Positions 3,086-43,831 of a stretch of 43,831 nucleotides of DNA are shown one piece after another. Position 1 is the first letter of the stretch. Each line of letters opens with the position of its first letter. The notes beneath the pieces were generated by a model. That model saw only the letters and a program-made list of their open reading frames with translations, ran no database searches and was not told the DNA's origin. The translations under genes were made by a program, and so were the position numbers. This DNA comes from Gemmatimonadota bacterium (GTDB lineage Bacteria > Gemmatimonadota > Gemmatimonadetes > Palauibacterales > Palauibacteraceae), in the NCBI GenBank assembly GCA_046758745.1, contig JBHIAV010000022.1, forward strand, positions 1 through 43,831, written 5' to 3'.

Positions 3086-3150
3086 CGACCGGAGATGAAC
3101 CGGGGGCTCATCATCGGCGCCACCTCGGCGATCGCGGAAGCGACGGCGAG
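3086..3150 (+). repeat. Direct repeat copy 1 (65 bp), a duplicate of the 5' end of the DprE2-like gene
   Basis: 62/65 identical to 6773-6837 by manual alignment. Confidence 0.95.
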
Positions 3151-3178
3151 CCGGGTGGCGAGGGCGAGAGAACTTTGA
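3095..3178 (+). pseudogene. Truncated N-terminal stub of the DprE2-like SDR
   Basis: Encodes MNRGLIIGATSAIAEATASR, then diverges and stops. The intact gene at 6782 reads MNRVLIVGATSAIAEATARR. Confidence 0.85.
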
Positions 3179-37358: not shown

Positions 37359-37679
37359 TCGGATCTCCGCCACACTTCGCCGGGATAGGCGGGGCCGGGT
37401 GTCCGGACTGAGGTTCCTGATGGCCGGCCGCCACGCCGAGGGCTGTCTCATCTTGGCGACGAAGCAGCCGCGCGGCGCCCTCACGGCCCGTCTCCCGGCG
37501 GTCGTGTGTGACCTTTCCCGCTCCTCGGTCGTCTTGTTCGTCGAGAGAGGGCGACGCTGCCGCATCGATCCCACACCCCACCGATGCTCGGGCAGAGGCT
37601 CAGGCCAGCGGTTGGAAAGACTGCGGCGAGCGTGCAGCGTGGCGAACCAGGCTCCCTTCGTGACAGGATCCGAATACAC

Positions 37680-39197
37680 GTGATAGAATCTGCCGAGCTG
37701 GCACCAGAGCTTCCCGAAGACTACGACAGCGAGCCGGCCTCCGGCTCCTTCGTCCTCGATTCCGACGCCATCTCCTCCATCCGCATCCTGGTCATCGACG
37801 ATGAGCCGAGCATCCTCGAGAGCTGTCAGTCGGTGCTGGAGGGCGAGGGCTACGAGTGCCTCACCGAGCGTCGCGCCGATGCGGCGCTCCGCCGCATCAA
37901 GAACCAGAGCTTGGACGTCGTCCTGATCGACCAGAACATGCCTCAGGTACATGGGCTCGACATCCTCGCCGAGGTACGCAGCTGCTGCCCCGAGGCCCTG
38001 GGGATCATCATGACCGGCCACGCCACGACCGAGCACGGCGTGCGGGCGCTCCAGGCGGGGGCGTGGGACTACCTTCCCAAGCCCTTCACCGCGACGCAGC
38101 TCCTCGTGCTGGTGGGGCGGGCCGCCCACACCCTCCTGCGCTCGCGGTCGCTGTCGCAGGGCGCGGAGCGCCGGGGTGTGTTGGTCGAGCGCGGCAACTC
38201 CATCCTGGGCGTGTCGGAGTCGATGCGGCACGCCGTCAAGAAAGCCCTCAAGGTCGCGCCCACGGACGCTTCGATCTTCATCACGGGCGAGAGCGGAACC
38301 GGGAAGGAGCTGTTCGCCCAGTACATCCATCGCGAGAGCCGTCGCTCCCGACGCTCGTTCGTGGCAGTGAACTGCGCCGCCCTGCCCGCCGAGCTGCTGG
38401 AGTCGGAGATGTTCGGCCACCGGCGCGGTGCGTTCACCGGCGCGATCCGCGACAAGGCGGGTCTGCTGGAGGTGGCGGATCAGGGCACCTTCTTCCTCGA
38501 CGAGCTGTCGGAGATGCCGATGCCCCTCCAGGCGAAGCTCCTGCGCGTCCTGCAGGACGGAGTGTTGCGTCGGGTCGGCAGCGAGAAGGACGATGCCGTG
38601 GTGGACGTGCGCTTCATCTCCGCCACCAACCGCGACCCGGAGCAAGCGCTGGAGGAGGGCCTGCTGCGTCACGACCTGTACTATCGGCTGCGGGTGGTGC
38701 CGATCCACCTGCCGGCGCTGCGCGAGCGACCCGAGGACATTCCCGTCCTCATCCGGCACTTCATCGATCTCTTCTGGCGCCGGCACCATCTACCGGGCCG
38801 TGAGCCGCCGAGGCTGGCGCCGGCCGCGCTGGAGGCGCTCGTGGGCTACGACTGGCCCGGCAACGTGCGCGAGCTTCAGAACGTGATCGAGAACATGGTC
38901 GTGCTCTCCGAACCGGACGAGGAGATCGAACCGGGGAGGCTGTCGATCCTGGTCTCGTCTTCATCCTTGGGTGGGGGGGACGGGGCGCCCGTCCCCGGGA
39001 CCTTCAACACCCGGATTCCGTTCCACGAGGCAAAGCAGGATCTGATCGACCGCTTCGAGCGGGACTACCTCGCCCAGCTGATCTCCCGCACCGGCGGGAA
39101 CATGTCGGAGGCGGCGCGGCAGGCGGGGATCGACCGCACGACCCTGTACCGGCTGATGGACAAGCACAACCTGGCACGAGAGGCCTTCGCTTCCTGA
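37680..39197 (+). CDS. Sigma-54-dependent response regulator (NtrC/AtoC family: REC-AAA+-HTH)
   Basis: Receiver domain (IDDE, IDQNMP, KPF), GESGTGKE, GAFTGA, LDE, WPGNVREL and a Fis-type HTH. The start codon is uncertain. Confidence 0.93.
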   Translation: MIESAELAPELPEDYDSEPASGSFVLDSDAISSIRILVIDDEPSILESCQSVLEGEGYECLTERRADAALRRIKNQSLDVVLIDQNMPQVHGLDILAEVRSCCPEALGIIMTGHATTEHGVRALQAGAWDYLPKPFTATQLLVLVGRAAHTLLRSRSLSQGAERRGVLVERGNSILGVSESMRHAVKKALKVAPTDASIFITGESGTGKELFAQYIHRESRRSRRSFVAVNCAALPAELLESEMFGHRRGAFTGAIRDKAGLLEVADQGTFFLDELSEMPMPLQAKLLRVLQDGVLRRVGSEKDDAVVDVRFISATNRDPEQALEEGLLRHDLYYRLRVVPIHLPALRERPEDIPVLIRHFIDLFWRRHHLPGREPPRLAPAALEALVGYDWPGNVRELQNVIENMVVLSEPDEEIEPGRLSILVSSSSLGGGDGAPVPGTFNTRIPFHEAKQDLIDRFERDYLAQLISRTGGNMSEAARQAGIDRTTLYRLMDKHNLAREAFAS

Positions 39198-39201
39198 ACG
39201 A

Positions 39202-40275
39202 ATGAGCGACAACGTCCTTCCCCTACCAGACCGGCGGCGCACGCCGGAGCGGCGTCGCGCCGATGCGGCGCGGATCGAGCCACCGATCGCCCGCCGCCCG
39301 GAGTGGTGGAATCCCACGGAGTCTTTGGGCCGGCTCCGACGGGCCCTGCGGTCCCAGGCTGAGCGCCTCGCCGAGCTGTTGGTCGCGGAGGAGCCCGGCG
39401 AGGGGCAAGCCGGATGGCTCGATCCGTCGACCGGAATCGAGGACGCATGGCTGGTCCTGTCGGCGGTGCGGGATGCCGTCCATATGGCGGGTGCGGGAGG
39501 TGCGCCGGCGCGCCGCACGAGGGAGCTACACGAGCGGCTTGATCAGGAGGCGCTGCGGCTGGTACAGGACGCCCTGGAGGCGAAGGTCACCGCGCAGCGT
39601 CGCTTTCTCGAGGAGGTGTCTCACGACATCCGCTCGCCGCTGAACTCGATTCTCTTCCTCGCCGACGCCCTTCGCGTCGAGCAGAGCGGCCCGCTGAGCC
39701 CGGTGCAGAAACGACAGGTCGGGGTGCTGTATGCCGCGGCGGTCACGTTGGTCAAGCTGGTCAACGACCTGATCGACTTCGCGCGGCTCGGGAAAGACCA
39801 CCCGATCAGCGTGGCCTCCACCGCGTTCGCCGTGGAGGCGGTGCTCGCGGACGTACACCGTCTCGTCGGTCCCCTCGTCGAACACCGCAAGGTCGATCTG
39901 AAGACCCTGACGGCTCCGGTCGGAATCCGACGTGGTGATCCGCAGCTGCTCAGCAGAGTGCTCCTCAATCTCGTGTCCAACGCGGTACGGGCGGTGGACG
40001 AGGGGGGTGCCGTCTCCGTTCACGTGAGCGAGCCGCGGAAGGGGACGCTGCGCATCGAGGTGACGGATGATGCGGCCGGTACGGATGTGGAGAGGCTGCG
40101 CAAGATGCTGTGTCCGGGAACCGGCGGAGCGGGGGAGACGCGCGGCTGGACGCACGGCCTCGGGCTCGCCATCAGCGCCCGACTCGTAGAAGCGGCGGGC
40201 GGGGAGCTCACGGTCGAGAGCCTGGCCGGGGACCGCACCTGCTTCGCGGTAGAGCTCCCCTTCTCGGCGGTGTAG
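39202..40275 (+). CDS. Cytoplasmic histidine kinase (HisKA + HATPase)
   Basis: H-box SHDIRSPL, N-box NLVSNAV and G2 HGLGL. No TM segment in the N-terminal region. Confidence 0.85.
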   Translation: MSDNVLPLPDRRRTPERRRADAARIEPPIARRPEWWNPTESLGRLRRALRSQAERLAELLVAEEPGEGQAGWLDPSTGIEDAWLVLSAVRDAVHMAGAGGAPARRTRELHERLDQEALRLVQDALEAKVTAQRRFLEEVSHDIRSPLNSILFLADALRVEQSGPLSPVQKRQVGVLYAAAVTLVKLVNDLIDFARLGKDHPISVASTAFAVEAVLADVHRLVGPLVEHRKVDLKTLTAPVGIRRGDPQLLSRVLLNLVSNAVRAVDEGGAVSVHVSEPRKGTLRIEVTDDAAGTDVERLRKMLCPGTGGAGETRGWTHGLGLAISARLVEAAGGELTVESLAGDRTCFAVELPFSAV

Positions 40276-40331
40276 CTCCGGCGCCACACCCCGGTGCGCC
40301 GCCCGTCGCAAGCTCGCCGCACCGATCCGGC

Positions 40332-41057
40332 CTACCGCAGGTGCTTCCCTCCGTCCACGCGGAGGACCTCGCCCGTCACGTACTCGGCGCCCGCCAGGTA
40401 GAGAACTGCCCGCGCGACGTCCTCGGGCGTTCCGATCCGCCCCATCGCGGTGAGCCGTGCGGTGGCCCGCGCCTCCCGCTCCGGCGTTCCGGATGGGAGG
40501 AGGACGGGCCCCGGGGCGACCGCGTTGACGCGGATGCGCGGCGCCCAGGCGAGGGCGAGGCCCCGCGTCAGGCTGATCAGGGCGGCCTTCGTCGCGGCGT
40601 ACGGCACGTAGCCCGGCCACGCCTCGAAGCCGGCGATGTCCGCGATGTTCACGATCGAGCCTCCCGCCTCGCCCATCAGGCGGGCGGCGGCCCGGGCGCA
40701 CAGGAAAGGAGCGCGGGCGTTGAGGGCGAAGACCCGGTCCCACTCCTCCGGAGTCACCTCTTCCAACGTGGCGTGCGGGAAGATCGCGGCGTTGTTGACC
40801 AGGAGGTCGAGCCCGCCGAGTTCATGCGCGACCCGCTCGAAGAGTGGGGGGATCTCCCCTGGCGCGCTCAGGTCGGCCTGTACGGCCAGCGCGCGCCGGC
40901 CGGCCGCACGGATCGCGGCGACGACCTCCTTCGCGGCATCGCGCGAGCTGTGGTAGTGCACCGCGACGTGGTGCCCCGCCTCGGCGAGCGCCAGCGCGAT
41001 CGCGCGTCCGACCCGCACGGCCCCCCCGGTCACCAGAGCGCGGCCGGTGTCCTTCAC
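40332..41057 (-). CDS. SDR oxidoreductase, pteridine reductase (PTR1/FolM)-like
   Basis: Motifs TGGAVRVG, VHYHSS, LVNNA, YAATK and RVNAVAPG. Start inferred at GTG 41057. Confidence 0.82.
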   Translation of the reverse strand: MKDTGRALVTGGAVRVGRAIALALAEAGHHVAVHYHSSRDAAKEVVAAIRAAGRRALAVQADLSAPGEIPPLFERVAHELGGLDLLVNNAAIFPHATLEEVTPEEWDRVFALNARAPFLCARAAARLMGEAGGSIVNIADIAGFEAWPGYVPYAATKAALISLTRGLALAWAPRIRVNAVAPGPVLLPSGTPEREARATARLTAMGRIGTPEDVARAVLYLAGAEYVTGEVLRVDGGKHLR

Positions 41058-41282
41058 CTCGGGTCGACTCGTCGGTTCGGCACCTTCCCGCTCCTTGTGT
41101 CGCGTGGGTGGGGCGGACCCGGCGGCATGGGATCGCGCCTCGCGCCTCGCGCTACCGGCCGTCAGCGGCAGCCCGCGGCCGCCGCCACGCCGCCCCTCTG
41201 GAAAGCGGAAGGTATCGCGCCGCCGGACGGCGGCGACAGCGCGCAAGACCGCGCGCGTTCGGGAATCGCCCGGTCTCCGGGG

Positions 41283-41311
41283 TTGACGCCGGCCGCCGGC
41301 CGCGTCACCCT
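41283..41311 (+). promoter_or_regulatory. Putative sigma-70-type promoter of the leader-aroH/tyrA unit
   Basis: TTGACG-N17-CACCCT. The leader ATG lies 7 nt after the -10, at the expected +1. Confidence 0.5.
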
Positions 41312-41318
41312 TCGTCCC

Positions 41319-41399
41319 ATGCGAGAGCGGGTGACGTGCGGTCGCAGGTATTACTACCGGATCCCCGGAGCAACCGGGTCGGGGGCCGCGCGCACTTAG
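41319..41399 (+). CDS. Tyr-rich leader peptide MRERVTCGRRYYYRIPGATGSGAART
   Basis: TAT TAC TAC at 41349-41357, upstream of a terminator and a tyrosine-biosynthesis gene. Confidence 0.8.
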   Translation: MRERVTCGRRYYYRIPGATGSGAART

Positions 41400-41430
41400 C
41401 TTGAGGAAAGGTACCGGCCGAGATCTTGGC

Positions 41431-41458
41431 GCCCCCGCCCCGCGGGGGCTTTTTCTTT
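41431..41458 (+). terminator. Intrinsic terminator (attenuator)
   Basis: GCCCCCGC-CCC-GCGGGGGC followed by TTTTTCTTT, 90 nt upstream of the aroH-tyrA start. Confidence 0.85.
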
Positions 41459-41548
41459 GTGACTCAGGCTGTTTCGCGGCCCCGGCGCGCCGTCGCGGGG
41501 AAAGATCGGAGCCGTGGATCGCCCGCCGAGAGAGAGGGGAGGAAGGAG

Positions 41549-42877
41549 ATGATCGGGATACGAGGAGCGATCCGGGTGGAGAGCAACGACCGGACCGAGA
41601 TCTTCCGCGCCACGCAGCGCCTCCTGCGGGAGATGCTGCGTAGGAACGGGCTCGAGCGCAGCCGGGTCGTCTCCGCCTTCTTCACCATGACCCCCGACCT
41701 GAACGCGGACTTTCCCGCGTACGCGGCGCGCGAGATGGGTTGGACCGATGTCCCCATGCTTGGGGCTCAGGAGACGGCCGTGCCCGGCGCCCTCGACCGG
41801 ATGGTCCGCATCCTCCTCCACGCCGATGCTCCCGGGCCGGCACGTCATGTTTATCTGGGAGATGCCGCGGCGATGCGGCCGGATCTGGCGCACGCGGGAG
41901 ATGCCGAGCGCTTCGCGGGAGCGCTTTCGGTACGGGGTGCGGCCGGCTCGGCTCCGGCGGAGGTGGCGGGCGACACGCCTCGGGCGCCCTCGCCCGGGCC
42001 GACACCTCCGGCGCTCGGAACGCTTCTCGTGGTGGGTCTGGGGCTCATCGGCGGCTCCCTCGCCCTCGCGGTGCGCCGCTCCGGCGTGTGCCGGGGCGTC
42101 CTCGGGACGGACGTGGATCCCGGGGCGGTGGAGCTCGCCCGGCGGGCCGGCGCGATCGACGAAGGGGCGACGGATGCGCCGGCCCTCCTCACGCGGGCCG
42201 CGGCGGTGGTCCTCGCCGTGCCCGTGCTCTCCGCCGTGCGGTGGATGCGCGAGCACGGACCTCGGTTGCCCGCGGGCACCGTGCTGGTCGACGTCGGGAG
42301 CACGAAGCGCGCGCTCGTGACGGAGATGGATGCCCTGCCGCCGGGGGTGGAGGCGGTGGGCGCCCATCCGCTGGCCGGCTCGGAGCTTTCCGGGATGGGG
42401 GCGGCGCGGCCCGACCTCTTCTTCGGCGCCACCTGGGCGCTCGTGCGAACGAAGCGCACGGGTCGCCGCGCCGAGGAGACGGCGCGCATCCTGATCTCGG
42501 CCGTGGGTGGAAGGGCCTTCTGGACCGGCGCGGAGCGCCACGACCGCGCCGTGGCCGCCACCAGCCACCTGCCGTACCTCCTGTCCGCCGCCCTGGCTCT
42601 CAACGTCCGCGACCGCGAGGAGCGGGATGAGGTCGCACGGCTCGCCGGCCCCGGCCTGCGGGACATGACGCGGCTGGCCGGAAGCCGGCCGAGCGTGATG
42701 GCGGAGATCCTGCGCACGAACTGGGAGAACGTGCTCGCGGAGACGGAGCGGTTCCGCCGGCGGTTCGAGGAGCTCGTGGCCTCCCTCGAGCGGGCGATGC
42801 CGGGGGATGTGGGTCCCCTCCTCGAGCGGGCCGCGCGGGCGCGCGAGGTTCTGATGCGGCCCGCGGCCGGCCGCTAA
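41549..42877 (+). CDS. aroH-tyrA: AroH-class chorismate mutase fused to prephenate/arogenate dehydrogenase (TyrA)
   Basis: N-terminal IRGA...TPDLNADFPAYAAR...VPML..QE...HVYL..A..MRPDL, then an Ala/Pro linker, then VGLGLIGGS, DVGSTK, HPLAGSE and HDRAVAATSHLP. Purine-rich RBS before ATG 41549. Confidence 0.92.
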   Translation: MIGIRGAIRVESNDRTEIFRATQRLLREMLRRNGLERSRVVSAFFTMTPDLNADFPAYAAREMGWTDVPMLGAQETAVPGALDRMVRILLHADAPGPARHVYLGDAAAMRPDLAHAGDAERFAGALSVRGAAGSAPAEVAGDTPRAPSPGPTPPALGTLLVVGLGLIGGSLALAVRRSGVCRGVLGTDVDPGAVELARRAGAIDEGATDAPALLTRAAAVVLAVPVLSAVRWMREHGPRLPAGTVLVDVGSTKRALVTEMDALPPGVEAVGAHPLAGSELSGMGAARPDLFFGATWALVRTKRTGRRAEETARILISAVGGRAFWTGAERHDRAVAATSHLPYLLSAALALNVRDREERDEVARLAGPGLRDMTRLAGSRPSVMAEILRTNWENVLAETERFRRRFEELVASLERAMPGDVGPLLERAARAREVLMRPAAGR

Positions 42878-43692
42878 CTCCCGTCGAGCGTCGTTTGCGA
42901 GCGGTACTCCGGAGGCGCGATCGACTTCACCCGCACCGACTTCGCCGGGATGCCCACGTTGACGTGGTACGGGCGAACGTCCCGCGTGGCCAGCGCCTTC
43001 GCCCCGACCATCCCCTGCTTTCCAACGTGCACGCCGGCCAGGACCGTGGCCCCGTAGGTGATGCGCACGTTGTCCTCGAGGACGGTGCGCGCGTTCGTCA
43101 CATCGAGGATGTCATCGATGGAATGGGTGTGGCTGAACACGGCGGCGTAGTCCGATACCGAGACGTTGTTGCCGATGACGATCCCGCCCCGATCGTCCAA
43201 CAGGACGTTGCGGTGAATCACCACGTCGTCGCCGACCTCCAGGTTGTACCCGAATGACACCTCCACGAAGTGGAAGGCCTTGAAGTTCCGGCCGACCTTC
43301 CCGAAAACGAAGGGCGCCAGCAGCCGGCGGAACCGCACCCCGAGATGGACGTTCCCGCCCACCGGCGAGCGGTCGAACATCTGCCACATCCAGATGAGCG
43401 GCTTGCGCGCGTAATACCGCTCCTCGTCGATTTCGTGGTAGTATTCCGGCTCGAGGGTGACGTTTCGTGGATCCAGGTTCGCCAGCGTCACGCGCGCGGA
43501 GAGGGGTAGGGATCCCGGGTCGACGTCGGCCCGGAGTCCGGGGAAGAAGATGCCGCGCAGCACCTCCACGCAGAGCTCGTTCCGATCGCACTCGGGGTCC
43601 GCCAGCCGAGCTTCGATCTCGGCCAGCCAGGCCTCGTAGAGCCGCACCGAATCGGCGACCGGCTGCAGTGGCCGAAGAGGACGAAGGGCCAT
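42874..43692 (-). CDS. Hexapeptide-repeat (left-handed beta-helix) acyltransferase
   Basis: VGDDVVIHRNVLLD, IGNNVSVS, LEDNVRITYGATVLAGVHVG and VGIPAK. Confidence 0.85.
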   Translation of the reverse strand: MALRPLRPLQPVADSVRLYEAWLAEIEARLADPECDRNELCVEVLRGIFFPGLRADVDPGSLPLSARVTLANLDPRNVTLEPEYYHEIDEERYYARKPLIWMWQMFDRSPVGGNVHLGVRFRRLLAPFVFGKVGRNFKAFHFVEVSFGYNLEVGDDVVIHRNVLLDDRGGIVIGNNVSVSDYAAVFSHTHSIDDILDVTNARTVLEDNVRITYGATVLAGVHVGKQGMVGAKALATRDVRPYHVNVGIPAKSVRVKSIAPPEYRSQTTLDGS

Positions 43693-43788
43693 CGGTCGTC
43701 TCTCGCGTCGGTTGCGTGGGGTACGCCCGGCCGCCGGTCGTGCTCGAGGACGGGTGCGCGACCTCCCGGGGGCCGGCTCGTCGCCGGC

Positions 43789-43817
43789 AAACTGAACGGC
43801 CCTTCGGCCCCCGTCAA
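43789..43817 (-). promoter_or_regulatory. Putative sigma-70-type promoter for the acyltransferase
   Basis: Minus strand reads TTGACG-N17-CAGTTT, the same architecture as 41283-41311. Confidence 0.4.
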
Positions 43818-43831
43818 CGAGGCGCGGCCCC

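Follow-up and report, generated by a model that had tools for sequence, protein, structure and literature searches.

What controls the tyrosine-branch gene aroH-tyrA in a bacterium of the phylum Gemmatimonadota? The question is raised by a stretch of 43,831 nt of contig JBHIAV010000022.1 (assembly GCA_046758745.1), referred to here at its full length as the window, in which an earlier note, made from the sequence alone, had placed a tyrosine-sensing, ribosome-mediated attenuator directly ahead of this gene. Leader-peptide attenuation is a textbook mechanism. Comparison of the window with related genomes leads us to consider it quite likely that the element is a ribosome-mediated transcription attenuator tying aroH-tyrA expression to charged tRNA-Tyr, and that it would be functional and Tyr-responsive.

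A Tyr-codon leader upstream of aroH-tyrA

The gene under the presumed control (41549-42877, + strand) encodes a type I chorismate mutase joined to a prephenate dehydrogenase, as shown by its Pfam domains CM_1 (2.6e-37), PDH_N (4.1e-27) and PDH_C (2.1e-18), and is thus the tyrosine-branch enzyme that had been claimed to lie downstream of the element. Its Shine-Dalgarno (SD) region occupies 41538-41548 (+), with GGAGG 6 nt ahead of the ATG. Since the gene that follows is on the minus strand, aroH-tyrA is monocistronic. A leader open reading frame (ORF) in the same orientation, ending 150 nt before the start of aroH-tyrA, spans 41319-41399 (+) and consists of 26 codons and a TAG stop codon (41397-41399). 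It translates to MRERVTCGRRYYYRIPGATGSGAART and is also covered by the match of the covariance model R1 described below. Codons 11-13 (41349-41357, +) are three tandem Tyr codons, TAT TAC TAC, which are the proposed regulatory codons and make up the 3 Tyr among the 26 codons of this leader. Among the 87,658 six-frame positions of the 43.8-kb window, YYY occurs a single time, at the leader site, and the probability of at least 3 Tyr in 25 residues is 0.0014 at the Tyr frequency of the AroH-TyrA proteins.

Beyond the leader lies an intrinsic terminator (41431-41458, +), detected both by a terminator scan and by folding, with a stem of eight G-C pairs (41431-41438/41442-41449), a CCC loop and a T-run at 41450-41458; the stem is followed by TTTTTCTTT, and the hairpin has a ΔG of -17.0 kcal/mol. 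Three terminator-like sites were found on both strands of 40000-43831, compared with 1.2 +/- 1.2 in shuffles, and the leader terminator is the sole site on the + strand. Between the Tyr codons and the terminator there is a small hairpin, CCCGG-AGCAA-CCGGG (41364-41378, +; arms 41364-41368/41374-41378), which forms in the minimum-free-energy (MFE) fold and whose 3' arm shares the first 3 nt of a G-rich strand, GGGUCGGGGGC (41376-41386, +). This strand can pair with the 5' arm and loop of the terminator and is referred to below as the antiterminator strand. All of the parts that the earlier note had described, namely promoter-like boxes, ORF, Tyr codons, hairpin, complementarity and terminator, are present in the raw sequence at the positions given for them. 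The complementarity behind the antiterminator pairing it proposed is also there, and the predicted helix is longer than the seven nucleotides originally described: CGGGGGC (41380-41386) is complementary to GCCCCCG (41431-41437), and the full helix joins 41376-41386 with 41431-41440 through 10 bp, with U41379 bulged. At its best, the pairing of the leader portion after the Tyr codons with the terminator 5' arm and loop reaches -23.0 kcal/mol in the window, compared with -15.8 +/- 3.1 kcal/mol in 200 shuffles, a fraction of 0.015 of which are as low; the strongest duplex among the leaders compared, with 17 pairs and -32.1 kcal/mol, is that of locus L022.

Conservation of the leader among relatives

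The closest AroH-TyrA homologues are 63% identical to the window protein, and the named ones come from Gemmatimonadota. A profile scan of genome contigs with an alignment of 35 fused proteins yielded 80 loci, 27 of which carry the fused gene and join the window in one family of the tree; 24 of these are labelled as Gemmatimonadota or one of its subgroups, and three as 'uncultured bacterium'. Counting the window, a promoter, a short Tyr-rich ORF and a terminator were found upstream of aroH-tyrA in 19 of 28 loci. The order of the parts is kept in the relatives, with a TTGAC promoter, an ATG a few bases past the -10 box, the Tyr-rich ORF and a G+C hairpin with a T-run, and the terminator is present in all 19 leader loci. 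We also scanned both strands of the 80 loci and the window (457,831 bp) without regard to position for ATG-initiated ORFs of 15-45 codons with a terminator 5-70 nt after them. This yielded 39 combinations of ORF and terminator, and all 16 that contain at least 3 Tyr lie upstream of the fused gene on its strand, the one in L012 upstream of a DAHP synthase/aroH-tyrA operon. Three further true leaders, in L003, L006 and L019, have two Tyr each.

The 19 leader ORFs have 21-30 codons and contain 2-5 Tyr each, which together amount to 68 of 495 residues (13.7%), compared with 70 of 7,921 residues (0.88%) in the downstream enzymes, a 15-fold enrichment (binomial 3e-57). TAT and TAC triplets in these leaders fall 68 times in frame, never in the +1 frame and three times in the +2 frame, and all leader Tyr are confined to residues 5-18, always 5' of the antiterminator strand. 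The Tyr leader peptide proposed for the window is thus a recurrent feature of its relatives. Phe accounts for just 2 of the 495 residues and Trp for 9, including WWW in L019, whose leader (2322-2408) reads MSATARTWWWTYAY..., with three Trp codons immediately 5' of the Tyr codons; the leaders of L009, L011, L012, L015, L020 and L022 have one Trp beside the Tyr residues. Outside the Tyr residues, the peptide is poorly conserved and its N-terminal part varies freely. The start codon, the frame and the position of the stop codon are kept while the nucleotides of the 5' half vary, and the 3' half of the leaders is conserved as RNA.

When the 28 enzymes are placed in a maximum-likelihood tree, rooted at the midpoint for drawing only, leaders are found in each of the two clades formed by the deepest split (100/100 for both), and the well-supported branches force at least four leader changes. 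Three loci (L010, L025 and L027) keep the promoter and the terminator with no Tyr-rich ORF, and in six others (L001, L002, L004, L007, L008 and L021) no leader element was found upstream of the fused gene. The window itself clusters at 100/97 with L001 and L002, which are among these six. The simplest reading is that the leader is an old element that has been lost several times.

Several features of individual leaders were observed in addition. TAT makes up 27 of the 68 Tyr codons in the leaders and 18 of the 70 in the enzymes of the 19 loci, an excess that may indicate a preference for the rarer codon at a stalling site. The 3' half of the leaders of L003, L006, L009, L012, L013, L019, L024 and L026 contains a near-invariant, purine-rich GCCGGGAGGGAGGCCGUGCG (columns ~74-92 of alignment A3, described below), which looks like a strong SD sequence and has its pairing partner in a conserved GCACGGACGCCUUCUC strand further downstream; the window is without it. 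Taken as sensors, the Trp codons of L019 and other leaders would be puzzling, as the gene behind them diverts chorismate from Trp. A Tyr-rich peptide precursor, of the kind of a ribosomally synthesized and post-translationally modified peptide or PqqA, was considered and rejected because no maturation enzyme is encoded among the annotated flanking genes and conservation of the peptide is poor outside Tyr.

Particular loci also differ in arrangement. The Tyr leader of L012 (1302-1443; MDEHARRYWYGYY...) precedes a DAHP synthase gene (1460-2485), which is followed by aroH-tyrA, and would therefore control an operon. L026 belongs to the same metagenome-assembled genome as L012; each has a Tyr leader ahead of a different aroH-tyrA copy, and the pair could be a real duplication or a mixed bin. 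At L025 (2400-2500), the promoter TTGACG-N17-CATAAT runs almost straight into the terminator, the Tyr ORF and the antiterminator are missing, and only model positions 113-150 of R1 are matched, although the sister locus L014 has a full leader. An ORF starting within the -10 box of L025 continues past the terminator to a stop 5 nt short of aroH-tyrA, so this locus may be a degenerate or re-wired derivative.

Covariation of the antiterminator and terminator helices

Applied to the MAFFT alignment, RNAalifold returned only 7 pairs, all of them in the terminator. The antiterminator helix was therefore set by hand from the folds of individual sequences and then counted on MAFFT alignments that had not been fitted to any structure, one including the window (A2) and one without it (A3). 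Measured against shuffle controls that ignore the relatedness of the sequences, the antiterminator was 79.2% paired in A2 (shuffled 68.6 +/- 2.2%, 0/500; slid 39-56%), with a covariation of 0.266 (shuffled 0.121, 0/500), and 80.6% paired in A3 (shuffled 69.8 +/- 2.2%, 0/500; slid 42-57%), with a covariation of 0.274 (shuffled 0.128, 0/500). The terminator, counted in the 18 leaders of A2, was 86.8% paired (shuffled 81.7 +/- 1.5%, 0/500; slid 42-68%), with a covariation of 0.270 (shuffled 0.176, 0/500). The antiterminator helix thus covaries about as well as the terminator helix. The informative column pair of the antiterminator is G-C, A-U or G-U in 6, 5 and 5 sequences of A2, respectively, tracking a C/U change in the terminator 5' arm. 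In a swap test, pairing with the antiterminator strand of each leader was weaker when its own 5' arm was exchanged for that of another leader (p = 0.00045).

These counts, together with the conserved Tyr runs, are the result of the alignment of orthologous upstream regions that had been put forward as a check on the attenuator, and both helices covary in it beyond all 500 shuffles. The parts of the element exist and are conserved, and the predicted antiterminator and terminator helices are mutually exclusive and covarying.

A homologous leader with Phe codons

R1 was built as a covariance model from 18 ortholog leaders, with the window left out. In the window, its hit at 41319-41459 spans the entire model (150 of 150 positions, 1-150), with 41.8 bits and an E-value of ~5e-10, R1 E-values being rough owing to a short calibration; the next match in the window scores 13.9 bits. 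When R1 was run on the remaining 62 loci, it gave one further full-length match, at L065 (622-760, 34.7 bits), a locus from a Gemmatimonadales genome. The leader ORF there (616-702) reads MTMRRAAFFAFAFYFGSPGGPGRTGVRG and contains five Phe and one Tyr. Behind it come a strong terminator and two genes (789-1856 and 1853-2842), encoding a DAHP synthase and a prephenate dehydratase-chorismate mutase fusion (PDT-CM_1). In the R1 alignment, the Phe codons of L065 align with the positions of the Tyr codons. On one and the same scaffold, then, Phe codons precede Phe-branch genes and Tyr codons precede Tyr-branch genes, which is the outcome that a codon-swap experiment would aim for.

The position-blind scan and R1 found no comparable element in 52 loci of other phyla, which says little because most of those loci carry a stand-alone aroH or tyrA. 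Rfam returned nothing at threshold in a permissive scan of 40800-41900, where the best match was anti-hemB with 19.8 bits against a gathering threshold of 49.5, and gave 0 matches in 20 ortholog loci (110,404 bases); the weak matches to small RNA families are probably driven by the terminator. Two weak matches of R1 were also recorded. One, at 3095-3169 of the window (+, 13.9 bits), was dismissed, as it has no T-run and looks like coding sequence; the other lies at 4662-4732 of L007 (-, 15.4 bits).

Promoter and start codon of the leader

Upstream of the leader ORF of the window, a -35-like box, TTGACG (41283-41288, +), is followed after 17 nt by a weak -10-like box, CACCCT (41306-41311, +), which ends 7 nt before the ATG at 41319. 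In each of the 19 leaders, TTGAC[AGT] is separated by 17-18 nt from a -10 hexamer in which A2 and T6 are mostly kept; at equal spacing, the hexamers of orthologues read CATAAT, CATCTT, TATTCG or TAAAAT. Between the -10 box and the ATG there are 7-11 nt in all leaders but one (9 nt in 11 of these 18), and none of the 18 has an SD-like motif within 20 nt 5' of the ATG. The exception is L011, which has a 45-nt 5' untranslated region (UTR) and a GGAGG 6 nt before the leader ATG. Unlike the leaders, most of the main genes do have an SD-like motif. That an SD appears just where a 5' UTR exists is the pattern expected if the ORF is translated, leaderlessly when there is no UTR. The leader ORF is therefore probably translated from a leaderless or near-leaderless mRNA, and the leaderless start suggested in the earlier note agrees, at the level of sequence, with what its relatives have. 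In the accessible part of a paper on anti-SD usage, Gemmatimonadetes have a low table value (22, in a column whose heading is not known) (PMC10783764).

Proposed mechanism of attenuation

From this arrangement, we infer a transcription start site, translation of the leader, stalling in response to Tyr-tRNA charging and a kinetic competition between helices, which would work together as follows. Transcription would begin on the ATG at 41319 or no more than a few nucleotides from it, and the 26-codon leader would be translated without an SD sequence. When Tyr-tRNA is scarce, the ribosome would stall at codons 11-13 (41349-41357), with the 5' arm of the hairpin at 41364-41378 lying under the ribosome stalled at the last Tyr codon, and the G-rich segment 41376-41386 would be left free. 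Once the terminator 5' arm and loop (41431-41440) have been transcribed, the free segment would pair with them, blocking the terminator and allowing readthrough into aroH-tyrA; the antiterminator would form first because it is transcribed first. When Tyr-tRNA is plentiful, the ribosome would reach the TAG at 41397-41399, unwinding and partly covering the G-rich segment. Judging from the usual size of a ribosome footprint, a ribosome at the leader stop codon would cover ~41382-41409, including the 3' part of the antiterminator strand. With that segment covered, the hairpin at 41431-41449 and the T-run would form, and transcription would end at ~41455.

Folding gives a partial view of these states. 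In the MFE and centroid folds of the window, a predicted long-range helix joins 41325-41343 with 41384-41402 (+), a candidate '1:2' anti-antiterminator, and the MFE fold without a ribosome, which contains this helix and the terminator, would be the expected default 'off' state. The orthologues have only short, variable hairpins after the last Tyr codon. The modelled energy cost of the antiterminator state is lowest with the ribosome at Tyr in 14 of 18 leaders, and in the window it amounts to 10.7 kcal/mol with the ribosome at Tyr, 14.6 at the stop codon and 16.5 without a ribosome; as a relative trend only, this direction fits attenuation. When folds are truncated before the terminator 3' arm, with a ribosome footprint placed on a Tyr codon, 17 of 18 leaders have most of their terminator 5' arm paired to an upstream G-rich segment that lies a few to ~20 nt past the last Tyr codon; only L014, with 0-5/8, departs from this. 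In the window, 7-8 of the 8 positions of the arm pair with the antiterminator strand. The outcome in these folds is a single long hairpin that has the leader stop codon close to its tip.

A separate feature of the MFE fold is that GAGGAAAG, at 41403-41410 of the window, pairs with the terminator U-tract (41449-41457), extending the hairpin as an A-tract does.

Weighing the attenuator and its alternatives

Several results weigh against a Tyr-sensing attenuator. The whole-leader fold is not unusually stable (z = -1.40), and the equilibrium folds of the window retain the terminator whether nothing, the Tyr region or the stop region is masked. The comparison of masked and unmasked folds that the earlier note had proposed therefore leaves the switch invisible at equilibrium, and any switch must be kinetic. 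In RNA this rich in G+C, the 5' arm is paired in shuffles too (for the window, a fraction of 0.255 do at least as well), so that the pairing statistic from the truncated folds carries no information. Tested sequence by sequence, the duplex is significant in only ~8 of 18 leaders, the window and about seven others, and it does not differ significantly from shuffles in L003, L006, L009, L011, L013, L014, L019 and L024. For the antiterminator in A2, the two measures based on counting pairs or types of pair do not reach significance (78/500 and 76/500), and the antiterminator strand of the window lies ~8 columns 3' of the consensus position in that alignment. At the promoter, the -10 box CACCCT of the window agrees with TATAAT at A2 and T6 only, and a promoter scanner run on 40000-43831 called 0 promoters. 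As to distribution, 9 of the 28 loci are without a Tyr-rich leader, including L001 and L002, the two nearest relatives of the window; all of the relatives are metagenome-assembled genomes; and the Phe-codon counterpart is a single locus, L065. Finally, the Trp codons in some leaders, with WWW in L019, are not accounted for by a pure Tyr sensor.

Part of this evidence would suit a real leader ORF and terminator that sense general translation capacity or transcription-translation coupling, with the Tyr codons incidental or otherwise used, since the equilibrium folds do not switch with ribosome position and Trp codons occur in some leaders (9/495 residues, WWW in L019). This explanation is unlikely in our view, given that Tyr is enriched 15-fold, strictly in frame and always 5' of the antiterminator strand, and that the homologous leader of L065 has Phe codons at the same place before a Phe-branch operon. 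A match between Phe codons and the Phe branch is hard to explain unless codon identity matters. Alternatively, the promoter-like boxes and the terminator, which the element has of its own, might belong to an independent small gene for a Tyr-rich micropeptide or a small RNA that lies beside aroH-tyrA without regulating it in cis. The weak Rfam matches are indeed to small RNA families, all of them far below threshold (the best with 19.8 against 49.5 bits). We find such a gene less probable still, as in 19 loci the element sits immediately ahead of aroH-tyrA or DAHP synthase, in the same orientation, and the peptide is poorly conserved outside Tyr. In L012, moreover, the leader stop codon falls inside an otherwise conserved GGAGG..CCGUGCG element, so that conservation there acts at the RNA level, and the 90 nt between the terminator and the main gene, inspected without a rigorous test, revealed no promoter that could serve that gene separately.

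The RNA-level conservation seen in the leader's 3' half, which comprises GGGAGGGAGGCCGUGCG and the strand it pairs with, might instead reflect an attenuator that binds a ligand, a tRNA or a protein, such as a riboswitch, a T-box or a target resembling those of TRAP and PyrR, with an accidental ORF. Against an accidental ORF stand the start, frame, stop position and in-frame bias of TAY codons (TAT or TAC; 68/0/3), which are conserved while the nucleotides of the 5' half vary, as well as the SD that is seen exactly where a 5' UTR exists, and Rfam gave no family at threshold in 40800-41900 or in the 20 ortholog loci. We give this explanation marginally less weight than the independent small gene. 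A chance co-occurrence of a YYY frame and a GC hairpin in G+C-rich intergenic DNA would agree with the z-score of the whole-leader fold, which is not significant (-1.40), and with the readiness of G+C-rich shuffles to pair. It is hardly credible when a model built from other genomes alone finds the element of the window at full length (E ~5e-10) and the same arrangement recurs in 18 other loci. The Tyr-responsive attenuator thus remains the explanation that we favour.

Genomic context of the element

The upstream neighbour of the leader is a short-chain dehydrogenase gene (40332-41075, - strand, start codon approximate; adh_short_C2, 1.1e-57), which is divergent, so that no upstream gene could end at the + strand terminator. 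Further upstream, at 37584-40275 of the window, a two-component pair consists of a sigma-54-dependent response regulator (Response_reg, Sigma54_activat and HTH_8) followed by a histidine kinase (HisKA and HATPase_c); it is ordinary and has no relation to the leader element.

Relation to known systems and significance

Control of tyrosine genes has been described in other forms. According to the accessible part of a comparison of Actinobacteria, these genes are regulated by T-boxes elsewhere, and no RNA element was found for them there (PMC1262725); the accessible part of a review places tyrosine biosynthesis genes under transcriptional regulators (PMC11802643); and a survey of premature terminators contains no mention of tyrosine or tyrA (PMC2965389). 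The searchable full-text literature, which leaves most subscription journals outside, yielded no Tyr-codon leader-peptide attenuator ahead of tyrA or prephenate dehydrogenase. This, along with the absence of an Rfam match, accords with the remark in the earlier note that a Tyr leader of this kind is uncommon.

The E. coli pheL-pheA system, like the trpL and hisL class to which it belongs, shares with the element a short ORF rich in codons for the end product and a terminator whose 5' arm has an alternative upstream partner. It is also the closest analogue by target, a chorismate mutase fusion, as pheA encodes a chorismate mutase-prephenate dehydratase in the accessible text of the review (PMC11802643). 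The present element differs from pheL-pheA in that Tyr would be sensed, the enzyme is a chorismate mutase-prephenate dehydrogenase (CM-PDH), the start is apparently leaderless and the host belongs to Gemmatimonadota, not Proteobacteria. Rfam includes Phe, Trp and His leader families. None matched here, and there is no sequence relationship to the pheL, trpL and hisL leaders.

Another aromatic leader, aroR, is located upstream of the DAHP synthase gene aroF in C. glutamicum, where aromatic codons (Phe-Tyr-Phe), ribosome stalling and an aromatic-pathway gene are again combined. As given in the accessible portion of the same review, it differs in having a single Tyr between Phe codons and in controlling the common pathway, not the Tyr branch, and Phe limitation raises aroF expression whereas Tyr availability is without effect (PMC11802643). 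The part of the literature on Deinococcus deserti available to us describes predicted leader peptides on transcripts that begin at AUG and attenuate amino acid or tRNA synthetase genes, one of them for tyrS (PMC4007540). The target in that case is tyrS and not Tyr biosynthesis, the leaders are predictions only, and among the rows listed in that part no leader stands beside the prephenate dehydrogenase Deide_10960 (PMC4007540). In mycobacteria, leaderless short ORFs with polycysteine similarly tie a downstream operon to one amino acid through their regulatory codons, although Cys is sensed and the hosts are Actinobacteria, as far as the accessible portion of the preprint goes (bioRxiv 10.1101/834739). 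Finally, the accessible part of a comparative-genomics study of Acholeplasma presents uORFC-13-1, a candidate upstream ORF ahead of aroF with a promoter, a start codon and an adjacent terminator, which differs in its Phe codons, a start led by a ribosome-binding site, its phylum and its DAHP synthase target (PMC8632094).

As far as could be established, what is new here is the Tyr specificity, the phylum and the natural codon swap, the mechanism itself being known. We see a slightly better than even chance that Gemmatimonadota harbour an old, previously undescribed family of leaderless attenuators on one RNA scaffold, whose specificity would be set by aromatic codons, with Tyr before CM-PDH or DAHP synthase and Phe before a DAHP synthase/PDT-CM operon. 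Such a family would be the first case of tyrosine biosynthesis controlled by a Tyr-specific leader peptide, as well as an example from nature of attenuator re-programming by codon exchange.

In the searchable literature, aroR is the only aromatic leader containing Tyr that we found, and it is reported to be unresponsive to Tyr, so that a conserved Tyr leader before a Tyr-branch enzyme would fill a gap. For annotation, R1 or the rule that combines an ORF with a terminator can be used to find these small ORFs, which gene callers overlook, and can help to predict whether ambiguous TyrA/PheA fusion genes in metagenomes belong to the Tyr or the Phe branch. The Tyr and Phe versions on one scaffold amount to a natural experiment in the evolution of attenuator specificity. 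If the proposed control is true, the element would represent the first cis-regulatory RNA family for the Gemmatimonadota, a poorly studied and largely uncultured phylum.

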